Below are positions 47,576 through 64,000 of a stretch of 64,000 bases of DNA, piece by piece. The position numbers and the translations under genes are program-made. Source of the stretch: Escherichia coli (lineage in GTDB: Bacteria; Pseudomonadota; Gammaproteobacteria; Enterobacterales; Enterobacteriaceae); the NCBI RefSeq assembly GCF_030384885.1, contig NZ_CP128613.1; one strand, given 5' to 3'. Below the pieces are notes generated by a model. That model had not been told where the DNA came from, made no database searches, and was given only the letters and a program-made list of their open reading frames with translations. Within the stretch, counting starts at the first letter, position 1; the number at the start of each line of letters is the position of its first letter.

Positions 47576-49567
47576 TTACTCAAGCAAGGTTAATAATTGT
47601 TCGCAAAGCAAAACGCAGTTATTCATTGCTTCTCCCCGTGCCTCGCCTTCTGTATTACGAAATTGTCCCAACACATGTGCCAGCCGATAAAAACCCATCG
47701 CGGTGAGTTCATTGACCAGCAACTCTGACTGACTAATGGCACTCTGTTCCTGATAGCGCCAGCCATTATGGAGCAGTTGAATAAGCAACGCCTGACAGCG
47801 CATCAGTAACTGATGAGTGGTAGACGGTACAGGCAGAACGCTGGTAGAAGGTAGCGGTGCCACAGGCGAAGTTTCTGCGTCCAGTGCCCAGGCGCGGGTT
47901 TGCGTCATCATTACTCGTGGTTCCAGTGTCAATTGCCCCTCAGCAAAATTGATAAACCCAGAAACCAGACTAACGGGATCTTCTGTTTGTTGTAACAGAG
48001 CTGCCATGCGTTCAACAGCAAAGGGCGCACTGGCTGAAGCTGGCAGTGATAACGTCAGCACATTATCGTCACCTTCGCCACTGATTACCTGCGCATCCAG
48101 TGTCTGCCGACTGCTGTCCCAACCGAGTGAAATGCACTCTTCTACTGGCAGAATAAATAAGTTATCGACCTGGTTAAGCGGTCGTATGGCGGCTGGCGGA
48201 CGTTGGCGTAAATATTCCCGCAAAGCCACAATGCCCGGCTGGCGCAGTGGTGCGCTCAACATTTGCCAGGCATCAGGCGACAGCGGAACAACACTGCTTA
48301 AGCGGTTGCGGGTAGCTAACAGCAACTCGCCATCGGCACTGCGTTTTGCTGCTTGTGAAACAATTTGCCCACCCGCCAGCGCGCCAGCCTGAAAACTAAA
48401 CAGCCGCCGTTTTGCCGCTGGAGAGTTATCCTGTTCACTTCTCGGCCAACTGCGCGAAAGATGCAAAATACTGCCGGTGTCGGGATCGGTGAACCAGATG
48501 CGTAAACCATACCGCTCATTATCCTGCCAGCAACGCATACCTAGTGACACCAGCCGCAAATGATCAAGCTTTGCTTCGCCAGCAATGCCTGCGCCGACGA
48601 GCGTGCGCCACGGTATGGGCGGTACCTCACCGACACTGTCACGTCGCGCCATCTCTTGTGCACTGTTCAAGCGACTGGTTAACGCCGCAATCTGGCACAA
48701 GCATTTTCCGGCATGATAGTGGCTGGCGCGGGCGTGGAAGGCATCAACGCTTGCCCGTAGCTGTCGTAGTGATTCACTTACCCAACGCCAGTTGCAGCGT
48801 TCCGCCGCTTGCTGCGCGCGGCTGAAAGCGGCCTCGTAGTGGATTGGCGGTTGGCTGATCCCGCCCAGCCATAATGCCTGACTTAATTGCTGAACATATT
48901 GACGACATGCTTTACCTTCGTCGCTGGAAAACGGATCGTCAGATGATGTGACGTGTTCACTGTGCATCTGCCAGATCAAATGAGTAAATTCCGCTTGTTG
49001 ATTTTTGGCCTCGACGAAGGCCTGCACAGCCAGTGCTACGTGTTCACACAGCGTTCCTTCAATACAATCACAACGGGCGAAACGAATGCTGCTGCGGGAA
49101 TAAAAACGCACATCGCTCATCGGTAAGCGGGCAGAGGGAATTTCGCCCGGTGTGCAGAACAACTCAATGGTGATGCCTTTAGCGACCAGCGCCTGCGCGC
49201 GTTTACGCGTGGTATTGGGCAGGGTAGCCAGTTCTTCCTGCCAGATTGCCGGATCCCACTCTTCTTCTTTTTCCGTAGGCTGGGCGGTGGCACAAAGTCG
49301 TTGATAACTTAACACCAGCATCACGCGATGACGGCACATGCCGCTGGCCCCGCAGCTACATTGAGCCTCTTTCAGTGCCTGACTGTTCGCCAGCCGGGTA
49401 CGGACACCGTCACTGAAGGTGGCGATTAAAGCGCCGTTCTCATGGCAGATTTCCGGGACATTGCCATTTTCCAGTTCCTTAAGGCTGCGCTTCACAAAAC
49501 CAGCATTGCTTAACGCCGTCAGGGCCTGCGGTGTCAGTTCTAATAATTCCGGACGTAGTGAATTCAT
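47576..49567 (-). CDS. yehQ: SWIM zinc-finger protein, last gene of yehLMPQ
   Basis: CxC...CxH SWIM signature (CSCGASGMCRH) near N-terminus; start at MNSLRPEL gives ATGA overlap with yehP. Confidence 0.75.
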   Translation of the reverse strand: MNSLRPELLELTPQALTALSNAGFVKRSLKELENGNVPEICHENGALIATFSDGVRTRLANSQALKEAQCSCGASGMCRHRVMLVLSYQRLCATAQPTEKEEEWDPAIWQEELATLPNTTRKRAQALVAKGITIELFCTPGEIPSARLPMSDVRFYSRSSIRFARCDCIEGTLCEHVALAVQAFVEAKNQQAEFTHLIWQMHSEHVTSSDDPFSSDEGKACRQYVQQLSQALWLGGISQPPIHYEAAFSRAQQAAERCNWRWVSESLRQLRASVDAFHARASHYHAGKCLCQIAALTSRLNSAQEMARRDSVGEVPPIPWRTLVGAGIAGEAKLDHLRLVSLGMRCWQDNERYGLRIWFTDPDTGSILHLSRSWPRSEQDNSPAAKRRLFSFQAGALAGGQIVSQAAKRSADGELLLATRNRLSSVVPLSPDAWQMLSAPLRQPGIVALREYLRQRPPAAIRPLNQVDNLFILPVEECISLGWDSSRQTLDAQVISGEGDDNVLTLSLPASASAPFAVERMAALLQQTEDPVSLVSGFINFAEGQLTLEPRVMMTQTRAWALDAETSPVAPLPSTSVLPVPSTTHQLLMRCQALLIQLLHNGWRYQEQSAISQSELLVNELTAMGFYRLAHVLGQFRNTEGEARGEAMNNCVLLCEQLLTLLE

Positions 49568-50700
49568 GACTGAAGATTCTCCGCAAGCCAGGTAGCCAGT
49601 TCGCCCGGTGTCATGGCAGCTATTTGTGCGCCGACATTTACCAGCGCCTGGGCTGTATCGCGGTCGTAGCAAGGTGTTGCGGTGCTATCGAGCGCTGCCA
49701 GTCCCAGCACTTTGATGCCGCTCTGGACACACTTTTTCACCTGATGCGTCAGCAAAGATGATGAACCCCCTTCATAAAAATCGCTCACGAGTATGATGAC
49801 GCTTTTCGCTGGTTGTTCAATAAGTTGCCGACCATATTCCACGGCACTGGCGATATTGGTCCCGCCGCCCAATTGTACTTTCATTAATAACTCTACCGGA
49901 TCGGCAACGTCGGCAGTGAGATCGACGACGTTAGTGTCAAAAGCGACCAGATGGGTACGAATGCCGGGTAACTGCCATAAACAGGCCGCCATCACCGCTG
50001 AGTGGATCACCGAGTCAACCATCGATCCGCTTTGATCAACCAGTAACACCAGCTGCCATTGTTCGCTATGGCGCTTAATGCGACTGTTAAAGCGGGGGGA
50101 TTCGATATACAACTTGCCGTGTTGCGGGTGCCAGTGTTGCAGGTTGGCGCGCAGAGTACTTTTGAAATCGAAATTACGCGCCAGTGGAATAAATGAGCGG
50201 CGACGGCGATCGCGGACACCAGAAAAAGCCTGACGAACTTCCTTTGCCAGTCGCGCCATAATTTCTTCAACAACCTGGCGCACTATCCGGCGGGCGGCAG
50301 CCAGCACTTCGGGATTCATCAGATGTTTGGTGTGCAAAACGGCGCGTAACAGGCTTTCAGAGGGCTGCATACGTTCCAGCACGTCGAGATTTGTCACTAC
50401 ATCTTCAATGCCATAGCGCAGTACAGCATCGCTTTCCAGCCGCTCAATCACCTGTTGCGGAAACAGCGTGTGAATACTGTTGATCCAATCAGGGGTGGTG
50501 AGATTTGAGCCACCTAATCCACCGGAGCGTTCACCACGCTGGAGCCGTTCAGGATCGCGCCCGTACAGCCACTCCAGCGCGTGGTCCATCCGCCGGGCGT
50601 TGTCATCCAGCCCACAAAGCGTCGTTTCTGCCGCTTCGCCAAGAATTAATCGCCAGCGTTGTAGCTCACGAGTGGTCAGAAGATCGTTCAGTTCAGACAT
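49564..50700 (-). CDS. yehP: von Willebrand factor A (VWA) domain protein
   Basis: MIDAS motif LLVDQSGSM; start at MSELNDLL; overlaps yehM stop. Confidence 0.8.
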   Translation of the reverse strand: MSELNDLLTTRELQRWRLILGEAAETTLCGLDDNARRMDHALEWLYGRDPERLQRGERSGGLGGSNLTTPDWINSIHTLFPQQVIERLESDAVLRYGIEDVVTNLDVLERMQPSESLLRAVLHTKHLMNPEVLAAARRIVRQVVEEIMARLAKEVRQAFSGVRDRRRRSFIPLARNFDFKSTLRANLQHWHPQHGKLYIESPRFNSRIKRHSEQWQLVLLVDQSGSMVDSVIHSAVMAACLWQLPGIRTHLVAFDTNVVDLTADVADPVELLMKVQLGGGTNIASAVEYGRQLIEQPAKSVIILVSDFYEGGSSSLLTHQVKKCVQSGIKVLGLAALDSTATPCYDRDTAQALVNVGAQIAAMTPGELATWLAENLQS

Positions 50701-52972
50701 GGAAAACTCCCCAGTGTTGCAGTGATGCCAGTGCCTGCTGTTCGAGCTGTTGATGATGTGCAATGGCTTGCGGTGGGCAATGCAACGGCATTTGCAGCGC
50801 CGAAACGGGAAGCTGAGCGAGCTGGTAATGCTCAAGCACCTGATGCGCCAGCGTCCCGCGTTCTCGTGGCGGTAGCCAGGCCATCGCCGCGCGTAAATCG
50901 GGCAGGGCGTTAATAAAATCGGCGTCACTCAGTTGATTCAAATGGCTGCTGAAACCGGCGATAAATGCAGGCTGACTGGCCAGTTGATGGCGGGCTAATG
51001 CCAGCAAACCGTGCAGCGCCTCGCCAGATTGTGCCGGGGATAATTGTGCCAGCATCGTCAGCGCCGCTTCGGCACTGGCGTTGGGATGTTCCAGACGCAT
51101 CAGCGCGCCAAGGGCCGCACCGCGATCCAGCGCTGGGGCATGAATCGCCTGACTGCGACGTTCCAGTAAGGCTACCGCCGCAGAAAGCGAAACGCCGGGT
51201 AAATTAACGCCGCTATTTAGATCGCGCAGGATATGGCAAAGCGCCTGCCAGCTATGCAGGTGAGCGTGAAACTCCTTCTCATCCGGCCTGCCGTTGGATT
51301 CACATAGCCACAGTGTGCGATCGATAGCCGCGTATAACGTCGTCTGTAATATCTGCGCGCCTTGCATACCGCTGATTTCATCGAGCTGCCACAAGGCGTA
51401 AAGCACTTCCAGCGCCTGGCCCATTTCGGCAAACTGATTTTCCTGGGCGATTAATAATGTGAGTTGTTCCAGTAATTGCTGACTGAAGGACGCCAGACCC
51501 GCTAACGCTGCCTGGCTAAGACATGTGGTGATGCCGCTGATTCCACCCGCGTCCAGCATATCGGCTTCTAATTTATTGCGTGCGGCCTCCTGGAGTGTGG
51601 CACCAAAGCAGGCGGCTTCAATCAATGCCGCATGTTGGCTAAGTGGCTGGGTTAATGTCCAGCGTTCTTCACCGTTGCCCGCCAGCGTCAGTGTACTTCC
51701 TTGCTCGCGCACAATGCCGGGAATCTCCAGTATTGCCAACCGATGTAGCACCTGACTTTGCGCCAGTCCATCGGGGGTAAAGCGATTTAAGGTAAGCTCC
51801 GCCGGAAGAGAGATTCCGGTACGTTCCAGTTCGCAGGTGACATCTTTTGGCAGAGGTGGCTGTGGCGTCGAGGGGGCAAGTTTACCGAATCCGTCACCTG
51901 CTAATGTGTCTATCAACGTTACCAGTATCGGATCGGTATCGGGATGAATAACGCCGCGATAGCTCCACGGCAACGGCGCATTCAAGGCTTCTTTAATCAG
52001 CGAGCCTGCTATGGCATCCAGCCAGTCAGCGCGTAACGGTAGTGTATGACCGCGCAGCTGTGCCAGCGCCATCGCATGTAGATGAGCGGCAGCCATATCC
52101 GCGGTTGAAGCAGGCAAGTGGTGCTGGCGCAAACGGGTAAGAACCGTTTTTAGTAGTTGTTCACCTGCCTGCTGCAAACCTGACTGCCAGCACCAGTTTT
52201 GCCAGACCGGGGCTGGCATTCCTGAAAGGTATCCTGCCAGCACATCAAGGCGCTTTTCACTGTATGGCGTGAGATAGCAACCTGTAACGGCATCATCCTG
52301 TGAGAGCAATTCTGGCTTGTTAATTTCTTGCGGGCATTCGCGCCACATTTTTGCAAGTGCCGGAGCGTGCCAGCCTCCGCAGACGACTAATACGTCGCCA
52401 TTATTTTGCTGCATCGCCCATGCAATCCAGCGGGCCATAAAGGCTTCGCGCTGACGATTGAGTGCATCGCCGGAGGCGTCGCCCCGCAGTTGTGCAAAAT
52501 AGTGCGCCAGTGCAGAGGGTAATATAGTTTGCTGGCTTTCATCTTCGAACAAGTGATCCCACAAGGTGTCGCTGTTATCCATGCGGGTGGCACGCAGCAG
52601 CAAGGCCTGGCTTTCCTCTTGCATATCAGGCGAATCATCCTCTTCTTCACTTTGTGCCCAGCAAGGCAAATCGATGAAGTAAGTTTGTGCCTGAATACGA
52701 CGTGCGGCTTGTAGCGCCTGCCACTCCGGCGAAAATTCAGCAAATGGCGTCCAGGCACCACGCCCAGGGGCCGCACCGTCCTGATACTGGCAATAACTGT
52801 AAATAGCTACCGGAAGCTGGTGGGCTAACAACAGTTCGTCTACCCGGTCATTAAAATCAGCAGGGCCTTCAATCAATACGTATCGTGGCCGCTGTCTTTC
52901 GATTAACGATTTCACCAGCCTGGCACAGGCTGGGCTATGATGCCGGATGCCGACAATTAACGGCTCGCTCAT
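50693..52972 (-). CDS. yehM: Large uncharacterized protein of yehLMPQ operon
   Basis: 759 aa from MSEPLIVG; no motif I recognise. Confidence 0.75.
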   Translation of the reverse strand: MSEPLIVGIRHHSPACARLVKSLIERQRPRYVLIEGPADFNDRVDELLLAHQLPVAIYSYCQYQDGAAPGRGAWTPFAEFSPEWQALQAARRIQAQTYFIDLPCWAQSEEEDDSPDMQEESQALLLRATRMDNSDTLWDHLFEDESQQTILPSALAHYFAQLRGDASGDALNRQREAFMARWIAWAMQQNNGDVLVVCGGWHAPALAKMWRECPQEINKPELLSQDDAVTGCYLTPYSEKRLDVLAGYLSGMPAPVWQNWCWQSGLQQAGEQLLKTVLTRLRQHHLPASTADMAAAHLHAMALAQLRGHTLPLRADWLDAIAGSLIKEALNAPLPWSYRGVIHPDTDPILVTLIDTLAGDGFGKLAPSTPQPPLPKDVTCELERTGISLPAELTLNRFTPDGLAQSQVLHRLAILEIPGIVREQGSTLTLAGNGEERWTLTQPLSQHAALIEAACFGATLQEAARNKLEADMLDAGGISGITTCLSQAALAGLASFSQQLLEQLTLLIAQENQFAEMGQALEVLYALWQLDEISGMQGAQILQTTLYAAIDRTLWLCESNGRPDEKEFHAHLHSWQALCHILRDLNSGVNLPGVSLSAAVALLERRSQAIHAPALDRGAALGALMRLEHPNASAEAALTMLAQLSPAQSGEALHGLLALARHQLASQPAFIAGFSSHLNQLSDADFINALPDLRAAMAWLPPRERGTLAHQVLEHYQLAQLPVSALQMPLHCPPQAIAHHQQLEQQALASLQHWGVFHV

Positions 52973-52982
52973 GCATCTTTCC

Positions 52983-54071
52983 TCACGGCAGGCGGTGGCG
53001 AGCTTGATAATAAGCCTGCCAGTGAGCTTCTTTATGTGTAGCGACACGCTGTTCGAAGTAACGGCGCAGACGTGCGCGATCTTCTTCGTTATCTTTGACG
53101 ATGGTTCCGGCAATACAGTCTACCAGGTCGGCAGGCTCCCCAGCGCGATTCGCTAAAAACCAGGCGCGGAAACCCACGGCGTGTGCTACGTTAACGGCTT
53201 CAGCGGTGGACATAATCGCTGTAAGGGTATCCATTGAGGTTTTCTTTTCGCCGTTGGCACGCAGATCGCGGAAGGTGCGGACCAGTAACTCCAGTACCGC
53301 GTCAGGCACTTTATGCGGAATACCGCTATGGGCCAGCAAACGTGCCGAAGCGCTGGCGACAAGCTCCAGCTCCTGGGCGAAATCCATAATCGGAAAGACA
53401 GTTTCAAAATCGAAGCGACGCTTGAGTGCGGCACTCATTTCATTGACGCCGCGATCGCGGGTATTGGCAGTAGCAATAATATTAAAGCCTTCCCGCGCAT
53501 AGAGCTGACTGGCTTCACCAGTGAGTTCCGGCACCGTCATAACCCTGTCAGAAAGCATACCTAACAGACAGTCTTGTACTTCCAGTGGTGTACGCGTTAT
53601 CTCTTCAAAACGGACAATTTTGCCGTCGCGCATTCCCTGGTAGAGCGGGGCAGGGACCAGCGCTTCCGTTGACGGACCATGGTTGATAAGCAGGGCGTAG
53701 TTCCAGCCGTACTTGATTTGATCTTCGGTGGTAGATGCGCCGCCCTGGATGGTTAACCCGGCATCGCCGCTAATAGCGGTTGCCAGTAATTCAGACAGGA
53801 GCGATTTTGCGGTGCCAGGTTCCCCCACCAACATCAAACCGCGCCCGGTAGCGAGAGTGACTAACATGCGTTCGACAGCGGAGGGGCTAATCACGACTTT
53901 ACGGCTAATATTTTGTGCTTCGTCGCCAAGGATAAAAACACGGGCCGCAGGCAAACTTAACTGCCAACCGGGCGGGCAAGGTGCGTGATCATTTTGTTTT
54001 AATTTTGCCAGTTCATCGGCGTATAACACAGCGGCAGGCGGACGCTGCAGATGATTATTCTGCGGTGACAT
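52983..54071 (-). CDS. yehL: MoxR-like AAA+ ATPase
   Basis: Walker A LVGEPGTAKS, Walker B/sensor motifs; start at MSPQNNHL. Confidence 0.85.
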   Translation of the reverse strand: MSPQNNHLQRPPAAVLYADELAKLKQNDHAPCPPGWQLSLPAARVFILGDEAQNISRKVVISPSAVERMLVTLATGRGLMLVGEPGTAKSLLSELLATAISGDAGLTIQGGASTTEDQIKYGWNYALLINHGPSTEALVPAPLYQGMRDGKIVRFEEITRTPLEVQDCLLGMLSDRVMTVPELTGEASQLYAREGFNIIATANTRDRGVNEMSAALKRRFDFETVFPIMDFAQELELVASASARLLAHSGIPHKVPDAVLELLVRTFRDLRANGEKKTSMDTLTAIMSTAEAVNVAHAVGFRAWFLANRAGEPADLVDCIAGTIVKDNEEDRARLRRYFEQRVATHKEAHWQAYYQARHRLP

Positions 54072-54181
54072 ATATTCATCCCTGAAATGTATTAATGAAA
54101 TAAACGATATTTTACGCGCAATAAATGTTTGGCGCATTAGTTGTTTGAGCGGAAAATATCTGGAAAGCAGATCACAGTAAA

Positions 54182-54265
54182 TAAAAAAACCTGCTGGTGA
54201 GGCAGGTTCTTTTATTTACTACTTTCAGGCCTAACACCACGGCCTGTGCAACATCGTGTTCCAAC
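54182..54265 (-). ncRNA. orzO: Antisense antitoxin sRNA (OrzO-like) of type I TA locus
   Basis: Minus-strand promoter TTGCAA-17 nt-TATAAT (-10 at 54272-54277), 5' region complementary to toxin leader (54246-54265 vs 54412-54431, 19/20), hairpin acctgc..gcaggt + U7 terminator at 54182-54207. Confidence 0.7.
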
Positions 54266-54294
54266 GAACGAATTATAACCATCGGTGGACCCCG

Positions 54295-54322
54295 TTGCAA
54301 TTAAGATAATGAGATTTATAAT
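54295..54322 (+). promoter_or_regulatory. Promoter of toxin mRNA (TTGCAA-16 nt-TATAAT), giving ~175-nt 5' leader
   Basis: -35 ttgcaa 54295-54300 (palindromic, shared with divergent sRNA promoter), -10 tataat 54317-54322. Confidence 0.65.
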
Positions 54323-54502
54323 CCTGACTGTTGGGACGTTGCGCCGGATCGAACCCATTTCAAGTCCTGGCTACCGGACGGGTGGTGCCGCAGGTAGTGC
54401 CCTGATCCGGAGTGCAACATCGTGGTCCAACATACGTAAACCAGTATCGACAGGCAGTGTAAGGGTAAGATGCTGGTGTTGCGCTCCTTAATAAGGAGAG
54501 CG

Positions 54503-54592
54503 GATGGACACGCTGACACAAAAGTTAACCGTGCTCATTGCCGTACTGGAGTTATTAGTGGCTCTGTTACGGCTGATTGATTTGTTGAAGTA
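54503..54592 (+). CDS. zorO: Type I toxin, 29-aa hydrophobic peptide (ZorO-like)
   Basis: ORF MDTLTQKLTVLIAVLELLVALLRLIDLLK preceded by strong SD taaggagag; matches my recollection of ZorO from E. coli O157:H7; not in ORF track (too short). Confidence 0.7.
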
Positions 54593-54615
54593 ACGGGCAA
54601 ATTGAAACGCATCTA

Positions 54616-54645
54616 AGGGGGAAAATACCGCTTCCCCCTTTAATA
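54616..54645 (+). terminator. Rho-independent terminator of toxin mRNA
   Basis: agggggaa-aataccgc-ttccccct followed by ttaataaaat. Confidence 0.6.
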
Positions 54646-54792
54646 AAATGATTATTGCTTCCATTAATTCACCCGATAACTTTTTTCTTATTTATTAATT
54701 CATCGATTTTATAATTAACGTACATTTGACCGGGATGTGAGTATTTATGGTGGCTATTGGCGAAAAATATCTGGAAACCAGATCGCGGAAAA

Positions 54793-54874
54793 TAAAAAAA
54801 CCTGCTGGTGAGGCAGGTTCTTTTATTTACTACTTTGACGATAACTTGCTGATTGTGCAACATTTCGTACCAAC
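54793..54874 (-). ncRNA. Second Orz-like sRNA (orphan: no cognate toxin ORF downstream)
   Basis: Intact minus-strand promoter TTGCAA(54904-54909)-17-TATAAT(54881-54886), terminator hairpin 54800-54818 + U-run; seed gtgcaacatttcgtaccaac differs from unit 1. Confidence 0.6.
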
Positions 54875-54986
54875 GAGTAAATTATAACCATATCCACACT
54901 CCATTGCAATTCAGTGAGTGAGATTTATAATCCTGCCCCTTGGGAGGTTGTGCCGGATCGGACCAATTTGAATTATTTAGAGTATA

Positions 54987-55304
54987 TTATTCTATTTCTT
55001 GGTTGAATATGTTCTGTAGTTCACGATTAAAAATGGCTATTACCGTTTCTGGTGATTCACCTCGTAATTTTCGCTCATCAATAAATTCATCTCTTATATA
55101 AATCAACGCATCATTTATTAGCGGGTCGGCATCTTCTCCATCACGTTGATGAAATGTTGGACGTAGCCGGAATCGTTCCTGTCGATAGACGGAACCTGTA
55201 AATAATTCAGAGCATTTATGGATCTCAAGTCTGAAGGAAAACGGATCTTCAGGTACAGGGACTTCATAATCATAAGTAGCGACCAGCTCTTTTTGCACGA
55301 TCAT
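54987..55304 (-). CDS. yehK: Uncharacterized small protein
   Basis: 105 aa in conserved position between yehL and yehI. Confidence 0.75.
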   Translation of the reverse strand: MIVQKELVATYDYEVPVPEDPFSFRLEIHKCSELFTGSVYRQERFRLRPTFHQRDGEDADPLINDALIYIRDEFIDERKLRGESPETVIAIFNRELQNIFNQEIE

Positions 55305-55364
55305 CGCTTTTCCCGGTGGTAAGTCGTGTTGATAACGGGCAGTCGCATCACTGCCCGCTGTGTT

Positions 55365-58300
55365 TTAATGGAAAATGACGTCAGGTGCGCTTAACGCTTC
55401 ACTCAAATCAAACGTATCGAGTTCGGCAAAAGTGACAGATTTATTGTCACGGTACACTCGAAGAGAACGGAAGCTCATTAGCGCTTTGCTATCAGCACTG
55501 TAGTGGTTAAAACCGGGTGAAAACTTAAGGACCAGCCGATACTCGCCCAGGTCATAGACACATGCGTCCTCAAAACCTGACTCCCAGCCTTTGTATCGCA
55601 TTCCCATAAGTTGCCCAACGGTTGCGGATTTACCTTCCCAGCGAGTCAGGCTGTTACTGGCTGACTCGTCAGGTGTGAGCAGCACTGTGCGCCGCATCAA
55701 CTGGCGAAAAGGCGGCATAATTTCGTAATCGGCAAAAACCTGTGCAAATTCACTGCGCATTTCTGCTGTCATTTCTAACGGGTGGGCAATGCCAATCAGA
55801 GCATCCGCAGGCAGGTCAATTGGCTCATCTTGTGCGTTGCAGAACTCCCTCTCAGCGGCCACACGAAAGGCGTTAAGTAAACGACGCGGTTCATTTGCCG
55901 GATAAACCGCCCATATTAATCGCTGAGTAACCAGGCGAGTAAAGGGATGATTAACAAACAGAGAATGAAAATCTGCCAGCGACCAGCGTCGAGTGGTGCG
56001 TAGGGCAGTTTCAAGACGCGGGAGCAGGTTTTTGCTCACCTGAGTGGCATCTTTTTTTAGCCCTTTTAGTCGGGCCAGTGCCTCGGGTGCTTTCAGCTGA
56101 TCGTCATCGGCGCGCAACCGGGGAACACTTTTCTGGCGAACGTTTTGCTGATCAAAGATAACCGGGTTGAGGTTTTCATCGAAGCGAACGGTAAACTGCC
56201 GGGGTCCAAAATCAAATATCAACGCCTGCGGATCATCCAGGCCCAGTGTTGGGACTAATCTGTCCGCTAACTCTTCCTGGCTTAGTCCACGATTTTCTGC
56301 GACCACCTGAAGAAATTCCGCCGCGTTATCACGTAAGGGACGGGATTTCGCCCGTTGCGATATATGATGCAGCTGTATCAGCGCCATATCATTATTCATC
56401 AGGGTAAGTATATTCAGACCACTGACAGCACGGGCAGATTTGCCCTCTTGAGGCCAGGCAAGGATCTGTGTCGTCAGATCCCGTGCCGTGCTTTCGTCGC
56501 CAAAGAGACTTAACGCCAGAAATGCCCAGTTGTCTTTTGCGGGAGCACCAGCTTGTTGCCACGCGGTGAAAAGATCCCAGGCAAAAGCGGCCAGCGTTTG
56601 TGGCTGGCAGAACGTTTTCAGTTGTTCCAGCCCGCAATAAAAACGTCCGCCCTGGGTAAAGCGCAGCATTTCGCCAATAATTTCCAGAGCGTCATCAGTA
56701 ACAGGTTGATTATTCGTGATAAGTCTCGGTCTGGACCACATTGTCGGATGCCAGAAATCAGGAGCTTTTGGAATGCGTGTTGGGTAAATCTCTATTGGAC
56801 TCTGTTTAAGTAATTGATCCAGGGCAGGCCATACATCTGTACGCTGCCAGCGGTTTGCCACGGTTTGCAGTAATTCGCCATGCCCTTGTTCATACAGTAA
56901 ACGCAGAGCGCTGAGTGCCGCTTCGCTGTTATCGCCAGACCTGGCAAAGATTAATGGGATCAGCGCCGTAGCCGTATGCTCCGGCCATTGTAAAATCCAC
57001 TGGCGAGCCAGATTACGCTGGCCCGCAAAACGATGCCAGACGCGGGCAACGGGCAGCGCCAGTTCTGTTGCGCCAAAATGAATCAGCAGCGGAAATATCT
57101 CTTTGGGATGTCGGGCAAAGGCGGTGATTAATCCGGGCAAAGCATCGGTACCCAGGACACTTAACAGATATTCTACCCCGGTGTAATGAAAATCAGCCGC
57201 AACAATTTGTTGCCAGCACGATACCGCCATTTCGCGCGGCATCTGCGCGATAAGGTACAGATTCCACACTCCCCAACGCTTTTCATCAGTGTAATTAAAT
57301 TTGCGTTGGAAAGTTCGCCACCCCTCCATCAACGCAACGCTATCTTGTGCCAGTAATGCGCTGGCGGCCTCTTCCCGGTAGTGTTTATTTTCAGTCTGTT
57401 TTGCCTGATAATTGAGCAATCTTCCTAATGAAGTATGTGTCTCTAGTTGATCGGTATCCAGAGCATCCAACTGTCCTGTGAGAATAAACTCATTAAACTT
57501 CCACCTGTGATCTTCAAAACCTAATTCCCGCAAGAAGGTATCTGCCCCTCTGCTTACGAGACGTTCGTCAAAAGACATGGCGCTAAAATGGTCAATTGCA
57601 GTTTGCTGTTCCGGCGTCCAGTGTTTATTCGGCGACCTATACGCTTGCGGTACAAGCGTAAGTTCAGGTAGCGAAAAGTGAGTTATGGAAGTCTTTTTCC
57701 TGCCACGCCATGGTGGTGAAACGAGGATTTCAGGCAGACTGCTGTTATCGGTGCTATCAATAACCGGTTTTGGCGATGCCGATAAATAACTATTCACCAC
57801 TGCCCGGGCTTGAGTACTTAACCACGGGATCACCTCTTCTGCCAGTTGTGGCTGCGATGCCATCAGCGTTTGTAACAGCGTACGCCAGTATTCATCACGT
57901 GCTTTTTGCTGTGCAGGCAGCTTTTTGTCTTCGATGATAGGATAACCAGGGCGCGTAGGGGGGGCTTTTAACGCCAGTAGTTCTGCCAGTGCGGCGAGCG
58001 TCGCATGGGGAAAGTTTTTACTGTATTTAGCCACACGCTGCAGGCTGGGTTTGTTTTTATCGGCAACTAACAGCAAGATGCGAATAATTTGCGGATGGTT
58101 AATTTGTACCAGCAGGCTACCGCAATCTTCTTTATGGGCATACATTGCCAGGTGTGGAATGGCTGCCAGTCCTTGTTCGCGCAAAAGGGCAGCGCAGGCC
58201 GCGTAGCCGAAGTGGTTTTCATGCGACATGTAGCTGGCTTCCCGATCGCTAAATATATCCTGGCTCCAGTAGCGTTCGAGTTTTTTCACCGCTCTGGGGT

Positions 58301-59015
58301 CATTAGCAACAACTTTTAACCACTCCTTAGAATGAAAATGAGTCCGCGGGCATTCAAGGCCTACCAACTCATTGGCGATTTCTGGTTTCTCCGGGAGGAT
58401 GAGTGCAATAAAAGGACGGCGAACTTTGGGTATTCCTGGCAGTGCGGCAATGAGTTTGTCGGCGCAACGCTGCCAGCAGCTTTCCTCTGCCAGAGAGAGA
58501 TGCTTACGCAGTCGGAGATCGAATTCGTTATAGGTTTCTGAGCGATAACCATAACCATCGTCCTCGTTCTGATACTGCAATGTTACTACCAGAGGATCAC
58601 TCTCATAACACCGTACAATAAACTGGCGTGCAATCACCACTTCAGTCGCATATTCCAGTCCCTCTTGTTGGACGATTTCGTCGAGCAACTGTTGGCTATC
58701 ATTTTGCGCGATACAGGCTAGCGCCGCCATTGTCCGGGCCGGAATTGAGGGTTTGTGCTCGCCGATCAAGTTGATGGCTTGCGTAATGGCCGACTGCCAC
58801 TCCAGTGAAAAATTTTCATAACGCCAGACGATGTTTTTTTTCTTCTCAGCAATGTGTAGCAATTTATCACCCAGTGTCTGGATGAGGCTTTCAGTGATAA
58901 CAGGCACCGGTTCGCCCGGCCAATTGCGATGGCTGAGTGGTGTTTTGCCTTTTTTATATTTCAGTTCCAGTTGGGCGTTATCCGCCAGCCACGGTAATTC
59001 CTTGTCCATGCTCAT
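55365..59015 (-). CDS. yehI: Giant uncharacterized protein, MolR/YehI family (DUF4132)
   Basis: 1216-aa ORF paralogous to the two upstream genes; start may be 2 codons downstream. Confidence 0.8.
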   Translation of the reverse strand: MSMDKELPWLADNAQLELKYKKGKTPLSHRNWPGEPVPVITESLIQTLGDKLLHIAEKKKNIVWRYENFSLEWQSAITQAINLIGEHKPSIPARTMAALACIAQNDSQQLLDEIVQQEGLEYATEVVIARQFIVRCYESDPLVVTLQYQNEDDGYGYRSETYNEFDLRLRKHLSLAEESCWQRCADKLIAALPGIPKVRRPFIALILPEKPEIANELVGLECPRTHFHSKEWLKVVANDPRAVKKLERYWSQDIFSDREASYMSHENHFGYAACAALLREQGLAAIPHLAMYAHKEDCGSLLVQINHPQIIRILLLVADKNKPSLQRVAKYSKNFPHATLAALAELLALKAPPTRPGYPIIEDKKLPAQQKARDEYWRTLLQTLMASQPQLAEEVIPWLSTQARAVVNSYLSASPKPVIDSTDNSSLPEILVSPPWRGRKKTSITHFSLPELTLVPQAYRSPNKHWTPEQQTAIDHFSAMSFDERLVSRGADTFLRELGFEDHRWKFNEFILTGQLDALDTDQLETHTSLGRLLNYQAKQTENKHYREEAASALLAQDSVALMEGWRTFQRKFNYTDEKRWGVWNLYLIAQMPREMAVSCWQQIVAADFHYTGVEYLLSVLGTDALPGLITAFARHPKEIFPLLIHFGATELALPVARVWHRFAGQRNLARQWILQWPEHTATALIPLIFARSGDNSEAALSALRLLYEQGHGELLQTVANRWQRTDVWPALDQLLKQSPIEIYPTRIPKAPDFWHPTMWSRPRLITNNQPVTDDALEIIGEMLRFTQGGRFYCGLEQLKTFCQPQTLAAFAWDLFTAWQQAGAPAKDNWAFLALSLFGDESTARDLTTQILAWPQEGKSARAVSGLNILTLMNNDMALIQLHHISQRAKSRPLRDNAAEFLQVVAENRGLSQEELADRLVPTLGLDDPQALIFDFGPRQFTVRFDENLNPVIFDQQNVRQKSVPRLRADDDQLKAPEALARLKGLKKDATQVSKNLLPRLETALRTTRRWSLADFHSLFVNHPFTRLVTQRLIWAVYPANEPRRLLNAFRVAAEREFCNAQDEPIDLPADALIGIAHPLEMTAEMRSEFAQVFADYEIMPPFRQLMRRTVLLTPDESASNSLTRWEGKSATVGQLMGMRYKGWESGFEDACVYDLGEYRLVLKFSPGFNHYSADSKALMSFRSLRVYRDNKSVTFAELDTFDLSEALSAPDVIFH

Positions 59016-59018
59016 TCC

Positions 59019-62000
59019 TTATTCAAACAGGGCTTCGATGTCGTTAATTAACTCGCTAGCGGTGATGTCATCGAGTGCGGAGAACAGCGCTTCCTGTGTT
59101 GAATTAATCCCCCAGCCATAGCTTTCTGCTTTGCCTTCCCATAGCCACAGCTTGCTTAAGAGTTGCTCGGCACTGAGTTCGGCTGGCGACATACCAACTG
59201 CAAATCCTTCATCGATTTCCATGATTAATGACCAGCGGCCCAGAGGTTTGATCATCCAGCCGATCCAGCCACCGTCCTGCGGTTCACCACGCACCCAGCC
59301 TTTATTCGACAGCCCCATAACCCGACCGCTCGGGCATTTTCTGCCTGCCCAGCGGGTTAGTTCGCTGGTGTTTCGTTCGACTTCAGTCAGGGCATAACTG
59401 TTGCGGTCGAGCTGGCGGAACGGCGGTAACAGCTCGTAGTCGGCAAAAAGCTGACCAAAGGCGGCGGCATCCGTCGGTGATATTTCCAGAACGTGAGGAA
59501 TACCTATAGAGATATCGCCTTCCGGCAGGGTGAAAAGATCATCGTCAGCGGTGCTGTAGCTGTTATCTTCCGCCACACGGAAGCACGCCAGTAACTGGTT
59601 GTCTGCGCTATAAATGCCCCAAATCAGACGGCGGGTTAAGTGGCAGACCAGCGGATTCTCAACCAGAAAGAGCTGAAAGTTTTCTGGCGACCAGCGGCGG
59701 CGCAGGCACATGGCGGATTCCAGCCTTGCCACCTGCTGGGCGGCAACGGTACGCGCATCTTTTTTCAGCAGTTTGTAGCGGTTAACTGCATCGTTCGCTT
59801 GGGTTTCATCATCGCTTTTGTTCGGTTTAGGCAAGTCTTTCAGGCGGCTGCCGGAAGCATCACGCACAAACGGTTTTAAGGTTTCATCAAAGCTGACGGT
59901 GAACTGCCGTGGCCCGAAATCCAGCAGCAGCGAACCGTTATCATCCAGACCGAGATCGGGCGCTAAGCGATCTTCAAGTTCTGCCACTGTGAGTTCGCGG
60001 CTTTCGGCAATGTCGGCAATTTTTTCTTTTGCCCGCTCCTGTAATGCTTTGAATTTCAGTTTCTGGGCGATGCCGTTAAGCTGCATCAGGGCGATATCAC
60101 TACCGATAGCAGCGAGAATATCCAGCCCGACGGTGGCGCGTTTATGCTGGGATTCACCAGGCCAGGCGCGGATTAATGGCGTCAGTTTGCGGGCGGTGTC
60201 ATCGTTGCCAAGAACACCTAATGCAGTGAACGCCCAGCTCTCTTTCGACGGCGCGCCAGCGGTCTCCCAGGCGGTAAACAGATCCCAGGCAAACTCAGCC
60301 AGTGAGTCGGCAGTACAGGCGTCTTTCACCTGTAATAACCCCGCATACAGCGTATCTTCCTGAGGGAAGCGGAGCATTTCACCGAGGTGGAAGAGGGCGC
60401 TATCTGGCAGTGATTGGGCGTTTGCTTTTAATACCGGGCGTGTCCAGAGCGATGGCTGATAAAAGGCCGGAAGTGTCGGGATTTTAGTCGGGTGATTATC
60501 TAAGGGATCGAGCGCAAGTAGAGCGTTCACCGCATCGGTTACTTCCGGCTGGTTATAACGCTGGGCGATTTCTTGCAGTAATGACGGATAACCACTTTCA
60601 ATCAACATACGTAAGGCGGCGCGGGCGTTATCCTGGGCTTCACCAGCTTTGCCGAGTGCCGCAGGCAACAGGCCGATAATGGCATGTTCCGGATATTTCA
60701 GCAGCCAGGTGCGGGCGTCTTGTCGTAGAGTTTTGAGTTTGTTAAAGGCGCGGGCGACGGCAGGAGCCAGCTCACTCGCTGCGAAGTAATTCGTTATGGG
60801 CAAGGCTTCCTGTGGATAGCGTGCAAGTGAGTTTACTAACCCAGGTAATCCTTTGAGTCCAAAATGTAACATGGCGTATTCGGTATCGGTATGCGGAGAT
60901 ACAGTAAGGGCATTCCATGCTCTTATTGCTTTCTCCAGCGGCAATGTTGTCAAAATCCCCAAATGCCAATAATGCCCGGTAGGTGAATGAAACACCTTAA
61001 ATTCACTTATTAAGGTTGAATAATCTTCATTTAGCCATGCCTCAACTACCGCTTCGGGAGCTTTAATATATGTACCAGCGATCCGTCGTTGAAAACCCAT
61101 CCTTGCCAACAGATTGGCAGTACTTTCTTCATGACTAACCGTGATGTGTTTTGAATACCAGATATATTTCGCCAAAAGTTGATTACTGATTTCTTCTGTC
61201 AGATAACTGATTGGCTCAATGCCTAATGGTGCTAAATCAAGCACCGGAATCGACGATTTTTTCTTTTTCGAAAGCCATGGTGGGGAGACTACTATGGCCG
61301 GCAGTAGATCGGTGCTGGCATGGTTTGAGGGCTGTGTCAGTTGTTGCTGGCATGATTTCAGCACTGCAGCTGCGGGTGTCGAAAGCCAGGGAATGACCTG
61401 TTCTGCCAGTGCTGGTTGCGAGATAAGCATCGTCATTAGCATAATGCGCCAACTATTCTCTTCTTTTTGCACTAGAAGTTCCGCCAGTGCTGCCAGTGCT
61501 GCGTGTGGGAACGCAGCGCAGGCTTTCGTCATTCGATCGTGACAGCGTTTAGTATGCCCGGCTACACGTATAAGCAGTGTTAATGCGAACGGATGATTGA
61601 TATGACGCAACACATCGGCGCAGTAGTCACTTGCGGCATAGGGAGCAAATCGGGGCAGGGCTGCAACACCTTGCTCCTGTAATACGGTGGCTGACCATAT
61701 CGCACCACAATAGTAATCATCAAAAATGGCATATGGCTCGTGATATTTTTCTAATGAGGCAAGAATGTGCTCATCAGTCGCCACTATTTTTAGCCACTCA
61801 AGCGAGGGTAATTTTTTTTTCCCCAGTAGACGCTGGGCAATTTCATGTGCAATTTCTGGTTTTTCGGGTAATAACAAAGCAATTAATGGTTGCCGCCATT
61901 CTGGAATATGTGGAATTGCGGCAATGAGTTTTTGTGCACATTTTTGCCAGAGAGACTCTTCCGCCAGTGATAAATGTTTCCGTAGGCGTAATTCAAAACT

Positions 62001-62813
62001 GGAATATTGCTGCAAGTTATCAGGTGCAATGCCAGACGGCAGAATAATAATGATATTATTCGCATAATTCCATTCAATATCAATCTGTTGAAGGTGTATT
62101 ATTACATCAGTAGCATATTCCAGACCGCCTTCCTGAATGATCTGATCCATAACATCCTCACGCACTTTATATCTTGTGCATTTCATTTCAAGTGCCGTGA
62201 GTACAGCCATTACTGGTGATGGTAACTGTGTTGTTTTCAGGCAGTCGATCTGACTGATCGCCTGGGCGACGGTGTTTTGCCATACTAAAGAACAGGCGCT
62301 GAAGTCAAATGTGGCTGTTTTATTATCCCGTTGCGACACGCTACAGGCTAAGCGACGTAACTGGGTCAAGTTGTCTGCTTGCTGAACAGGAACTCCGGGA
62401 AAGCGGCGATGGCTTAACGTGGTGTGTACAACTTCGGGCGGAAAAACGACAGCAATATCTTTCGCCAGCCACGGTAAAACATCATCTGTATTTTTGTCAG
62501 CCACACGGGCTTCTGCTACGCAAAAGGGTTGTTCCTGAATAATGGTGGATAAGGCCGCTACCTTGAGAGAATCCGTTACCGTTTGGGAAGGTTGCAAAGA
62601 ATTATCCTTCGCTTGCTCCACATACCCCTTCTTCATCTTCTCCGCAATCAGCCTCAGTTCCGCTTTTTCCGCCGCCGCAGCATCAGCAAAGCTTTTTACC
62701 TGGCTTTGCCCGTTGGTACCAACTTTGCCCCAACTAATATGCAGCTCGTTTCCCTGTTGCTCCACTGCCCAGAATTTATGTGATTTTTCGTCCTGATAAA
62801 TATAGGTTTTCAT
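59019..62813 (-). CDS. molR: Giant WGR-domain + DUF4132 protein (MolR), intact
   Basis: 1264 aa; N-terminus KFWAVEQQGNELHISWGKVGTNGQ...AELRLIAEKMKKGY fits WGR domain; stop 3 nt from yehI start. Confidence 0.8.
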   Translation of the reverse strand: MKTYIYQDEKSHKFWAVEQQGNELHISWGKVGTNGQSQVKSFADAAAAEKAELRLIAEKMKKGYVEQAKDNSLQPSQTVTDSLKVAALSTIIQEQPFCVAEARVADKNTDDVLPWLAKDIAVVFPPEVVHTTLSHRRFPGVPVQQADNLTQLRRLACSVSQRDNKTATFDFSACSLVWQNTVAQAISQIDCLKTTQLPSPVMAVLTALEMKCTRYKVREDVMDQIIQEGGLEYATDVIIHLQQIDIEWNYANNIIIILPSGIAPDNLQQYSSFELRLRKHLSLAEESLWQKCAQKLIAAIPHIPEWRQPLIALLLPEKPEIAHEIAQRLLGKKKLPSLEWLKIVATDEHILASLEKYHEPYAIFDDYYCGAIWSATVLQEQGVAALPRFAPYAASDYCADVLRHINHPFALTLLIRVAGHTKRCHDRMTKACAAFPHAALAALAELLVQKEENSWRIMLMTMLISQPALAEQVIPWLSTPAAAVLKSCQQQLTQPSNHASTDLLPAIVVSPPWLSKKKKSSIPVLDLAPLGIEPISYLTEEISNQLLAKYIWYSKHITVSHEESTANLLARMGFQRRIAGTYIKAPEAVVEAWLNEDYSTLISEFKVFHSPTGHYWHLGILTTLPLEKAIRAWNALTVSPHTDTEYAMLHFGLKGLPGLVNSLARYPQEALPITNYFAASELAPAVARAFNKLKTLRQDARTWLLKYPEHAIIGLLPAALGKAGEAQDNARAALRMLIESGYPSLLQEIAQRYNQPEVTDAVNALLALDPLDNHPTKIPTLPAFYQPSLWTRPVLKANAQSLPDSALFHLGEMLRFPQEDTLYAGLLQVKDACTADSLAEFAWDLFTAWETAGAPSKESWAFTALGVLGNDDTARKLTPLIRAWPGESQHKRATVGLDILAAIGSDIALMQLNGIAQKLKFKALQERAKEKIADIAESRELTVAELEDRLAPDLGLDDNGSLLLDFGPRQFTVSFDETLKPFVRDASGSRLKDLPKPNKSDDETQANDAVNRYKLLKKDARTVAAQQVARLESAMCLRRRWSPENFQLFLVENPLVCHLTRRLIWGIYSADNQLLACFRVAEDNSYSTADDDLFTLPEGDISIGIPHVLEISPTDAAAFGQLFADYELLPPFRQLDRNSYALTEVERNTSELTRWAGRKCPSGRVMGLSNKGWVRGEPQDGGWIGWMIKPLGRWSLIMEIDEGFAVGMSPAELSAEQLLSKLWLWEGKAESYGWGINSTQEALFSALDDITASELINDIEALFE

Positions 62814-62825
62814 TGCAAAGTCCTT

Positions 62826-64000
62826 TTAATCAAAAAGTGATTCAACATCGTTAATCAACTCGCTGGCGGTGATGTCGTCGAGCATGGAAAAAGTAAGTAA
62901 AGGTTGTTTACCGTAGCGATCATCTGGCGAGGTGATTTTTACGCTTTCAACAGGTAACAGGTCGCCATAACCTGTTTCACCATAAATTAATGAAAAATGT
63001 TCTGTTTCAAGTTCGAGATCGCCATAAGGGGTAGATTTGCGCATCGCATAGACGCTGCCGCTTTCTTCCAGACGTTGCCAGCCTCGGCGCTCTAGCCCGA
63101 CAATACGTCCGGCCTGACAGAGCTGTCCTTGCCAGCGTGTCAGGTCGTGGGTATTCCGTTCATTATCAGCAAGACGATAACTACCACGATCGAGCTGTTG
63201 GAAGGGGGGAAGCAGTTCGTAATCAGCGTAAATTTGCCTGAATGCAGCGGCAGATTCAGGGGGGATTTCCAGCACATGCGGTATACCGATGTTTCCTGCT
63301 GGCAGCGTGAATAACTCATCCTGCGCATCGCTGTAAGTGCTGTCTTCTGCGACCCGGAAGCAGGCAATCAGCGTGTTTTCTTCAGTATATACTCCCCATA
63401 ACAGCCGTCGGGTTAAGTGACGTACCAGCGGATGCTCCACCAGAAACAGGCGGAACTGTTCTGCCGTCCAGCGTCTGCGCTGGCACATAGCCTGCTCCAG
63501 ACGATCAATCTGCTGACTGGCAATGGCGCGCACATCTTTCTTCAATTGTTTGAAGAGGTTAACGGCGTCAGTTGCCAGTGTTTTATCATCGCTCTGATTT
63601 GGTTTGGGTAAATCTTTCAGGACTTTGCCGTTTGCATCGCGCACTACAGGTTTTAAGGTTTCGTCAAAACCAACGGTGAATTGACGTGGGCCGAAATTAA
63701 GTATCAGCGAGCCGTTGATATCAAGCCCTAAATCTGGAGCCAGGCGGTCTTCCAGTTCGGCCATAGTCAGCCCACGGTTTTCAGCAACTATGTTGATTTT
63801 CTCGCGGGCATGTTCCTGTAATACAACGAATTTAATCTTTTTCGCAATGCCATTAAGCAGCATTAGCGCAACATCGCTGCCAATATCAGCTAATACATCC
63901 AACCCGGACACCGCCCGTTTATGCTGTGATTCCCCAGGCCAGGCACTGATAAGCGGGGTTAATTTACGCGCGGTGTCGTCATTGCCTAAAATCCCCAGCG
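62826..64000 (-). CDS. Third MolR/YehI-family paralog, C-terminal part (gene continues beyond window end)
   Basis: Frame open to window edge; protein and DNA alignable to molR (59019-60300); C-terminal ...LDDITASELINDVESLFD. Confidence 0.75.
   Translation of the reverse strand, partial: LGILGNDDTARKLTPLISAWPGESQHKRAVSGLDVLADIGSDVALMLLNGIAKKIKFVVLQEHAREKINIVAENRGLTMAELEDRLAPDLGLDINGSLILNFGPRQFTVGFDETLKPVVRDANGKVLKDLPKPNQSDDKTLATDAVNLFKQLKKDVRAIASQQIDRLEQAMCQRRRWTAEQFRLFLVEHPLVRHLTRRLLWGVYTEENTLIACFRVAEDSTYSDAQDELFTLPAGNIGIPHVLEIPPESAAAFRQIYADYELLPPFQQLDRGSYRLADNERNTHDLTRWQGQLCQAGRIVGLERRGWQRLEESGSVYAMRKSTPYGDLELETEHFSLIYGETGYGDLLPVESVKITSPDDRYGKQPLLTFSMLDDITASELINDVESLFD

Follow-up and report, generated by a model that had tools for sequence, protein, structure and literature searches.

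A stretch of 64,000 nucleotides (nt) of the Escherichia coli contig NZ_CP128613.1, referred to here as the window, ends in a tandem array of three giant genes, namely molR, yehI and a third paralog (P3). In a sample that spans four phyla, genes of this family were found next to homologues of yehL, yehM, yehP and yehQ, which lie in the same window, and the three paralogs are therefore regarded as one component, multiplied, of a five-part module. On balance, it appears to be an even call that P3, MolR and YehI are variable adaptor or sensor subunits of a YehLMPQ remodelling machine that acts in the context of DNA damage or nucleic acids.

The window is 100% identical to the same region of E. coli 2013C-4282 (NZ_CP027579.1; locus L001), and a window coordinate equals the L001 coordinate plus 40999. 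The gene order on the minus strand is metG (outside the window, with its terminator), P3, molR, yehI, yehK, an AT-rich gap of ~850 bp, yehL, yehM, yehP and yehQ. The array comprises the following features:

62826-64000, minus strand: C-terminal 390 codons of P3, the third paralog; no stop interrupts the frame up to the window edge, and the start lies beyond it, at L001 25624
59019-62813, minus strand: molR, intact, 1264 amino acids (open reading frame (ORF), Pfam, AlphaFold model)
62607-62795, minus strand: WGR domain of MolR, residues 7-69 (PF05406, E 3.5e-17; PDB 2ra8, E 7e-17)
59295-59852, minus strand: DUF4132 of MolR, residues 988-1173 (PF13569, E 9e-50), within a conserved C-terminal module (about residues 950-1264)
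55365-59015, minus strand: yehI, the WGR-less paralog, 1216 amino acids from the first ATG (ORF, Pfam, junction sequence)

These reading frames agree with the original prediction, made from the sequence of the window, of three tandem giant MolR/YehI paralogs with a yehI of 1216 amino acids, an intact molR of 1264 amino acids and a third copy that leaves the window. In the ORF listing, P3 is called as a 361-amino-acid ORF with a GTG start; residues upstream of this GTG still align with MolR, and the full coding sequence in E. coli 2013C-4282 (RefSeq WP_106907450.1) encodes 1265 amino acids with both WGR and DUF4132. Chance would not produce ORFs of ~1200 codons that match Pfam families at E-values of 1e-17 to 1e-51, and P3, molR and yehI contain no frameshifts and no internal stops in this strain, as the prediction of intact genes requires. 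The P3 stop and the molR ATG are separated by 12 nt, with an AAGGA 7 nt before the latter. The predicted 3-nt gap between molR and yehI holds for the first yehI ATG; the start chosen by RefSeq is the second ATG (59009), which gives 1214 amino acids and a 9-nt gap, and its AAGGA has the better Shine-Dalgarno spacing. Judging from these distances, the three genes are probably translationally coupled.

The WGR domain of MolR covers positions 7-77 of the 79 positions of the PF05406 model and aligns by phmmer with residues 3-71 of 2ra8_A, its sole solved relative by sequence. It carries the motif WGKVGTNGQ, which corresponds to WGRIGTxGQ in the family consensus. WGR had been noted only in MolR; the profile search upheld it there and also detected it in P3 (residues 8-69, PF05406 E 1.6e-17), and the Pfam scan found none in YehI. 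DUF4132 was detected in all three paralogs (E 6e-47 to 3e-51), lying at residues 999-1182 of P3 (E 3e-51) and at residues 960-1144 of YehI (E 6e-47), where it is the only Pfam family. Its model of 179 positions is matched from 1 to 179 in MolR and P3 and from 3 to 179 in YehI. Nothing besides WGR and DUF4132 was significant in the Pfam scans of the three proteins: there was no poly(ADP-ribose) polymerase (PARP) catalytic domain, and the 1264 residues of MolR contained no helix-turn-helix or other regulator domain. The suggested comparison with PARPs thus extends to WGR, which has been described as a DNA-binding domain (PMC7824862), and stops there. In the NCBIfam scan, the paralogs matched only the N-terminus of LIC_11051, at the level of WGR (E 9e-17). 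This domain make-up has already been catalogued, as RefSeq and UniProt use the name 'WGR and DUF4132 domain-containing protein' and the literature contains "MolR-like" WGR proteins.

MolR shares 37% identity with YehI over 1186 amino acids, alignable only from MolR residue 108 onward, and 44% with P3 overall. The latter value is unevenly distributed: the WGR head and the C-terminal 300-400 residues of MolR and P3 are very similar (66-84% in the C-terminal core) and the middle can hardly be aligned; in the N-terminal and central parts of the solenoid, identity between paralogs is 12-40%. By sequence, P3, MolR and YehI are true paralogs with one shared plan, from which YehI appears to have lost the WGR head.

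An AlphaFold model of MolR residues 65-1264 was obtained with a mean predicted local distance difference test score (pLDDT) of 88.8 and a predicted template modelling score of 0.83. In this model, the WGR domain is followed by a disordered linker, an all-alpha solenoid of ~850 residues and the DUF4132-containing alpha/beta C-terminal module, so that the suggested structure prediction gave a confident solenoid and C-terminal module. Foldseek searches with the solenoid returned only generic HEAT/ARM proteins (karyopherins, SF3B1) with TM-scores ≤0.14. The C-terminal module modelled alone reached a pLDDT of 94; it had no match in a profile search of PDB sequences and no significant fold match in the PDB, and its hits in AFDB50 were family members only, from Proteobacteria, Myxococcota and Actinomycetota. 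Its predicted fold has no solved homologue and would hence be novel. A search of 1.84 billion representative proteins with MolR 65-1264 retrieved 5878 clusters (50% identity) at E≤0.001 and 2604 at E≤1e-30. Most of the top family members begin with WGR, and a minority are WGR-less like YehI. Conservation in the family is concentrated in the last 500-600 residues and includes an invariant Ser-Glu pair in the last helix (S1253/E1254 in MolR).

To define the genomic context of the family, one genome per species was scanned, and the 75 loci recovered were searched with the E. coli Yeh proteins. In ~50 of them, from four phyla, the DUF4132 gene directly precedes homologues of yehL, yehM, yehP and yehQ on the same strand, which begin after 30-300 nt. 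The taxa include Enterobacterales, Burkholderiales, Xanthomonadales, Neisseriales, Trichlorobacter and Mycolicibacterium; in Burkholderia the order of the module is reversed. Clustering of the flanking ORFs over the 75 loci revealed no sixth recurrent gene and no recurring molybdoenzyme or cofactor gene. Identity to the E. coli proteins across phyla is 71-76% for YehL, 63-71% for YehP, 43-48% for YehM and 31-38% for YehQ; the DUF4132 protein shows 40-45% and is conserved only in its C-terminal 500-600 residues. In the window, the four partners are:

52983-54071, minus strand: yehL, MoxR-type AAA+ ATPase (AAA_5) with the Walker A motif GEPGTAKS (annotation, Pfam, motif)
50693-52972, minus strand: yehM, DUF5682, 759 amino acids (Pfam E 1e-97; conserved neighbour)
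49564-50700, minus strand: yehP, von Willebrand A (VWA) protein of the VWA_CoxE type with an intact MIDAS (DQSGS at residue 222) (Pfam, motif, conserved neighbour)
47576-49567, minus strand: yehQ, two SWIM zinc-finger motifs (CxCx6CxH, residues 70 and 166) (annotation, motif; conserved neighbour)

The engine parts look functional, as a Walker A motif is present in YehL, a MIDAS in YehP and two SWIM motifs in YehQ. A classification of MoxR proteins published by Snider and Houry in 2006 is said to include a YehL subfamily, and we know of no function assigned to this subfamily since then. The locus has the features of that subfamily, an AAA_5 ATPase with a Walker A motif adjoining a VWA protein with a MIDAS, and one MoxR subfamily has YehL as its eponymous founder (PMC3893208). 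The nearest solved relatives of YehL by sequence are the AAA domains of midasin (E 7e-10), and NCBIfam gave weak matches to GvpN, MadB and McrB. The first 270 residues of YehM contain the strictly conserved motifs GxRHHSPACARLV, LIEGPxDFN, SPEWQAL, VVCGGxHAP and GYxSGMP, a pattern that suggests an enzyme-like domain in DUF5682. Assignment of this region to the TraB/Tiki-type metallo-enzymes (GxRHH...E...GGxHA) was considered but found no support at the sensitivity of the comparison, with an hhalign probability of 0.17 over 14 columns against YbaP and no Pfam or PDB support.

Upstream of the array, a LexA/SOS box, AACTGGATATAAATACAGGG, was located on the minus strand at L001 25632-25651, which is outside the window; 7 nt separate it from the ATG of P3, with which the array begins. 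The box matches the consensus at 15 of 20 positions, is of the CTG-N10-CAG type with an AT-rich spacer, lies 3' of the metG terminator and contains TATAAA, a possible -10 element. In K-12, the box AACTGGATAAAATTACAGGG lies directly before yehF; Klebsiella oxytoca, E. whittamii and a further Escherichia species likewise have the box at the equivalent site, compared with a background density of 0.014 boxes/kb. In addition, a published table of LexA-regulated E. coli genes whose SOS box is known includes molR (PMC6590174, Table 1; K-12). From the position of the box and the K-12 literature, we propose that the array is under DNA-damage (LexA) control in Escherichia and Klebsiella. A comparable response has been reported in Deinococcus radiodurans, where depletion of the radiation-response repressor DdrO strongly induces the WGR gene DR2173 and the DUF4132-containing operon DRA0165-DRA0166 (PMC8533742). 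Neither the yehLMPQ partnership nor the LexA box had been part of the original prediction.

Variation within E. coli is graded among the proteins of the locus. Proteins of this strain are 99-100% identical to those of other E. coli for MetG and ApbC, 98-99% for YehL, 97-98% for YehP, 94-96% for YehM and 90-92% for YehQ; the values are 92-94% for MolR (74% in one strain), 86-94% for P3 and 81-84% for YehI. The paralogs are the most variable genes of the locus within E. coli. Part of the overall distance reflects the strain itself, which belongs to a divergent E. coli lineage: its metG has ~96% nucleotide identity to nearly all complete E. coli genomes, with only two records at ≥99%, and the locus shows only 90-95% nucleotide identity to most E. 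coli partly because of this divergence. The ratio of nonsynonymous to synonymous substitution rates (dN/dS) within E. coli is 0.16-0.31 for the paralogs, 0.04-0.07 for YehL and YehP and 0.01-0.03 for MetG, and the paralogs are under purifying but relaxed constraint.

The alleles form mosaics. Residues 451-600 of YehI (window positions ~57200-57670) are 37% identical to those of strain MEI7BO1-21, with saturated synonymous divergence, between flanks at 94-98%, a pattern that indicates exchange of cassettes that diverged long ago. In one MolR allele, identity is 49-67% across the first 750 residues and 89-97% across the last 500. Pervasive positive selection is not evident, with dN/dS at or below ~0.46 both gene-wide and in those 150-codon windows where dS was measurable, and a mosaic exchange of segments that diverged long ago describes the variability better. 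Copy number also varies. Of 5426 complete E. coli genomes, 1643 carry P3, which K-12 does not have; the module occupies a fixed site in ~99% of the genomes of this species. Independent tandem arrays have formed in other genera, among them Klebsiella (three copies), Massilia (up to six) and Duganella, and several of these arrays include a downstream copy without WGR. The idea that the triplicated genes have diversified is borne out by the low solenoid identity, the mosaic alleles and these independent arrays. The expansion in Massilia is far larger than in E. coli: seven loci (L030, L046, L054, L055, L069, L075 and L076) carry arrays of four to six DUF4132 paralogs, with several such loci per genome, and are mostly without yehLMPQ within 10 kb.

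The region between the array and yehL has a content of its own, beginning with the following orphan gene:

54987-55304, minus strand: yehK, 105-amino-acid orphan (annotation; tblastn matches in Escherichia loci only; no Pfam family recorded)

YehK is 88-95% identical within E. coli, and its gene sits between the DUF4132 array and a toxin-antitoxin locus. The latter, a zor-orz type I locus, lies in the gap between yehK and yehL (54138-54986). Two OrzO-P antitoxin small RNAs were detected on the minus strand, at 54183-54258 (98.9 bits) and 54794-54867 (90.6 bits), together with a ZorO-like toxin ORF of 29 amino acids on the plus strand at 54504-54593, MDTLTQKLTVLIAVLELLVALLRLIDLLK. Two zor-orz units are arranged in tandem at a spacing of 609-611 bp (54149-54363 and 54760-54972), with the toxin ORF in the first only. 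This locus matches z3289/z3290 of O157:H7 and is absent from MG1655 (PMC2887945).

If the paralogs do serve YehLMPQ, their conserved C-terminal DUF4132 module would dock on a constant engine consisting of the YehL AAA+ ring, the YehP VWA/MIDAS adaptor, YehM and YehQ, with YehP or YehL as the direct contact. The WGR head would bind nucleic acid and, together with the variable solenoid, would pick the target, either a nucleic-acid end or a nucleoprotein complex, and the YehLMPQ engine might then use ATP to remodel this target, in the manner of other MoxR-VWA pairs and of midasin. DNA damage would switch the array on via the LexA box at the first gene in Escherichia and Klebsiella, and multiple paralogs together with mosaic alleles would widen the target range; a role in DNA-damage tolerance may follow. 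The MIDAS of midasin binds its substrate, and by analogy the S1253/E1254 pair of MolR is a candidate ligand for the MIDAS site of YehP.

Several observations weigh against this assignment. The tie between DUF4132 proteins and YehLMPQ is genomic linkage only. Some family members have no yehLMPQ within 10 kb, among them most copies in Massilia and those on several metagenomic contigs; the loci without these neighbours are nearly all from Massilia, which has many extra copies. In E. coli, moreover, yehK and the toxin-antitoxin locus stand between the array and yehL. The two parts are also controlled separately, with LexA and BglJ-RcsB acting at molR, whose promoter is activated by BglJ-RcsB (PMC3950696), and H-NS acting at yehL, since the repression of yehL and yehM is relieved in hns/stpA mutants (PMC3686432). 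A search for the gamma/beta-type motif found no LexA box before 95 other WGR gene starts, so that the box is limited to Escherichia and Klebsiella. No effector or enzyme is recognisable among the module proteins. The locus is dispensable, the whole region having been deleted in the reduced-genome strain DGF-298 (PMC10652928). Finally, at least one component is disrupted in five of the eight complete E. coli genomes sampled: molR in K-12; P3, molR and yehM in O157:H7; yehM and yehL in 190693; yehI in 042; and yehM in O22:H8. The lesions are stops or frameshifts in yehM (three strains), a frameshift in yehL, stops in yehI and P3, and frameshifted or split molR. They hit different components independently in different lineages (loci L080 and L084-L087), and some of the frameshifts could be assembly errors. 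As stated in the original prediction, molR is fragmented in K-12, where it is split into yehF (b2115, 'PF05406 family protein') and the yehH pseudogene (b4499).

Damage of this kind invites the view that the array is in decay in E. coli, functionless today and intact here only by coincidence, and the dispensability of the region in DGF-298 and a resistance transposon inserted there in an ST131 sublineage (PMC9334617) fit the same picture. We give it a slim chance, because none of the eight genes is broken in this strain or in two others, the dN/dS values over genes of 1200 codons show purifying selection, the exact MolR protein sequence of this strain is indexed in 584 blocks of the assembly collection, and the LexA box is conserved across genera. 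An unlikely alternative is immunity against phages or mobile elements, with the diversifying WGR-solenoid paralogs sensing invader proteins or DNA ends and the MoxR-VWA engine triggering an unrecognised effector, possibly YehM or YehQ. The locus resembles immune loci in pairing a variable sensor with a constant engine, and in its mosaic alleles, changing copy number and frequent losses; known conflict systems are driven by MoxR-VWA pairs (PMC7159879), an SOS-induced array would be switched on together with prophages, and a type I toxin-antitoxin locus lies within the cluster. However, none of the eight proteins matched PADLOC-DB 2.0 (E≤0.01), and in five distant genomes the module is immediately flanked by housekeeping genes, the ten flanking proteins of this small sample also being without a PADLOC match. 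The fixed site in most E. coli genomes, and a dN/dS that is not above 1, speak against it as well. The DUF4132 module was found in none of 50,697 phage records and is rare on plasmids (31 of 72,556 records). No nuclease, NADase, protease or pore-forming domain was recognised in the locus proteins, and the three paralogs have no recognisable catalytic domain, which agrees with the earlier description of a family of unknown function. The survey of conflict systems contains no WGR, SWIM, YehL, YehP or DUF4132 (PMC7159879), and nothing relevant emerged from literature searches on DUF5682, on yehLMPQ and on 'WGR domain' in combination with phage defence.

MoxR-VWA pairs such as CoxD/CoxE, NorQ/NorD, CbbQ/CbbO and BchI/BchD serve in the maturation of metal centres or enzyme complexes. 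Given these precedents (see also PMC3893208) and the CoxE-type VWA family of YehP, the machine could instead be a maturation chaperone for a metal centre or molybdoenzyme with the DUF4132 proteins as scaffolds, which would explain why the original molR mutant required high molybdate, molR being a gene named from a molybdate-utilisation mutant (as cited in PMC8533742 and PMC4245954). We hold this to be quite improbable. K-12 makes active molybdoenzymes, yet its molR is split. The locus could be deleted in DGF-298 (PMC10652928), no molybdoenzyme or cofactor gene recurs next to the module in the 75 loci, the molybdate genes do not respond together with the Deinococcus homologues (PMC8533742), and LexA control, WGR and SWIM domains point to nucleic acids. 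The legacy annotation of MolR as a DNA-binding transcription factor of molybdate metabolism, kept alive by names such as 'MolR family transcriptional regulator' and compatible with the described DNA binding of WGR (PMC7824862), is very hard to credit for a protein in which no regulator domain was found; a solenoid of ~850 residues and a strict AAA+/VWA linkage are atypical of such factors, and YehI has no WGR at all.

The prediction that P3, MolR and YehI are subunits of a remodelling machine can be extended, more doubtfully, to a general scheme. WGR-DUF4132 proteins and YehLMPQ might constitute an unrecognised, widespread ATP-driven machine, in which interchangeable solenoid sensors with PARP-type WGR domains detect damaged or foreign nucleic acid and a midasin-like AAA+/MIDAS engine remodels or dismantles the bound nucleoprotein, under the control of LexA in enterobacteria and DdrO in Deinococcus; we put this forward only tentatively. 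If true, it would give a function to the whole MoxR subfamily, DUF4132 and DUF5682, and would provide a bacterial counterpart to eukaryotic WGR-based break sensing. The family is very large, with its thousands of clusters at 50% identity, and comes with an entire MoxR subfamily and two domains of unknown function in the best-studied bacterium. The genes and domains were already known, and the initial finding as written adds nothing new; the five-gene linkage, LexA box, Deinococcus regulon, variability gradient and mosaic alleles turn 'unknown function' into specific testable questions. K-12 is unsuitable for studying the system because its molR is broken, and this strain, M00057 and MEI7BO1-21 are usable natural models because the three paralogs and yehLMPQ are intact.

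Searches against PHROGs gave near end-to-end matches with very high scores for every gene of 47576-64000, including yehK (for example, YehQ residues 1-662 against positions 1-663 of 667). A phage origin on this basis was rejected, as the module is absent from the phage genomes searched and the PHROG lengths look like host-protein fragments; the matching PHROGs are most likely host genes swept into prophage predictions.

Comparison with known systems places the yeh locus close to several of them. Like the vWA-MoxR ternary conflict systems (Kaur, Burroughs, Iyer and Aravind 2020; PMC7159879), it combines a MoxR-VWA engine with diversifying partners, but it has no recognised effector or death-like adaptor domain and does not lie in a defence island. 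The E. coli SOS genes of unknown function yebG, ydjM and ybfE similarly have a promoter LexA box and a listing in the LexA regulon, whereas the yeh array is a multi-gene unit encoding 1200-amino-acid proteins tied to an ATPase machine, with its box only in Escherichia and Klebsiella. With PARP1-3 and the bacterial WGR-repeat proteins (2ra8 from Bacteroides fragilis; LIC_11051 family), MolR shares an N-terminal WGR of ~70 residues; unlike in PARP1-3, this domain is joined to a solenoid and DUF4132, with no PARP catalytic or helical regulatory domain. Among the MoxR AAA+/VWA pairs (YehL subfamily, RavA-ViaA, CbbQ-CbbO, NorQ-NorD and CoxD-CoxE), the common feature is an AAA_5 MoxR protein, here YehL, adjoining a VWA protein with an intact MIDAS, and the YehL system differs in adding three conserved partners (DUF5682, SWIM and WGR-DUF4132) that are seen in no characterised MoxR system. 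The eukaryotic remodeller of ribosome assembly, midasin/Rea1, carries its six AAA modules on a single giant polypeptide, whereas the YehLMPQ/DUF4132 parts are encoded by separate genes, and the sole hint of a ribosome role here is that deletion of the molR1 fragment in K-12 slows the growth of a lepA mutant (PMC4245954). The two nevertheless resemble each other in their AAA_5 modules, a long helical linker and a ligand-gripping MIDAS that, in midasin, pulls.

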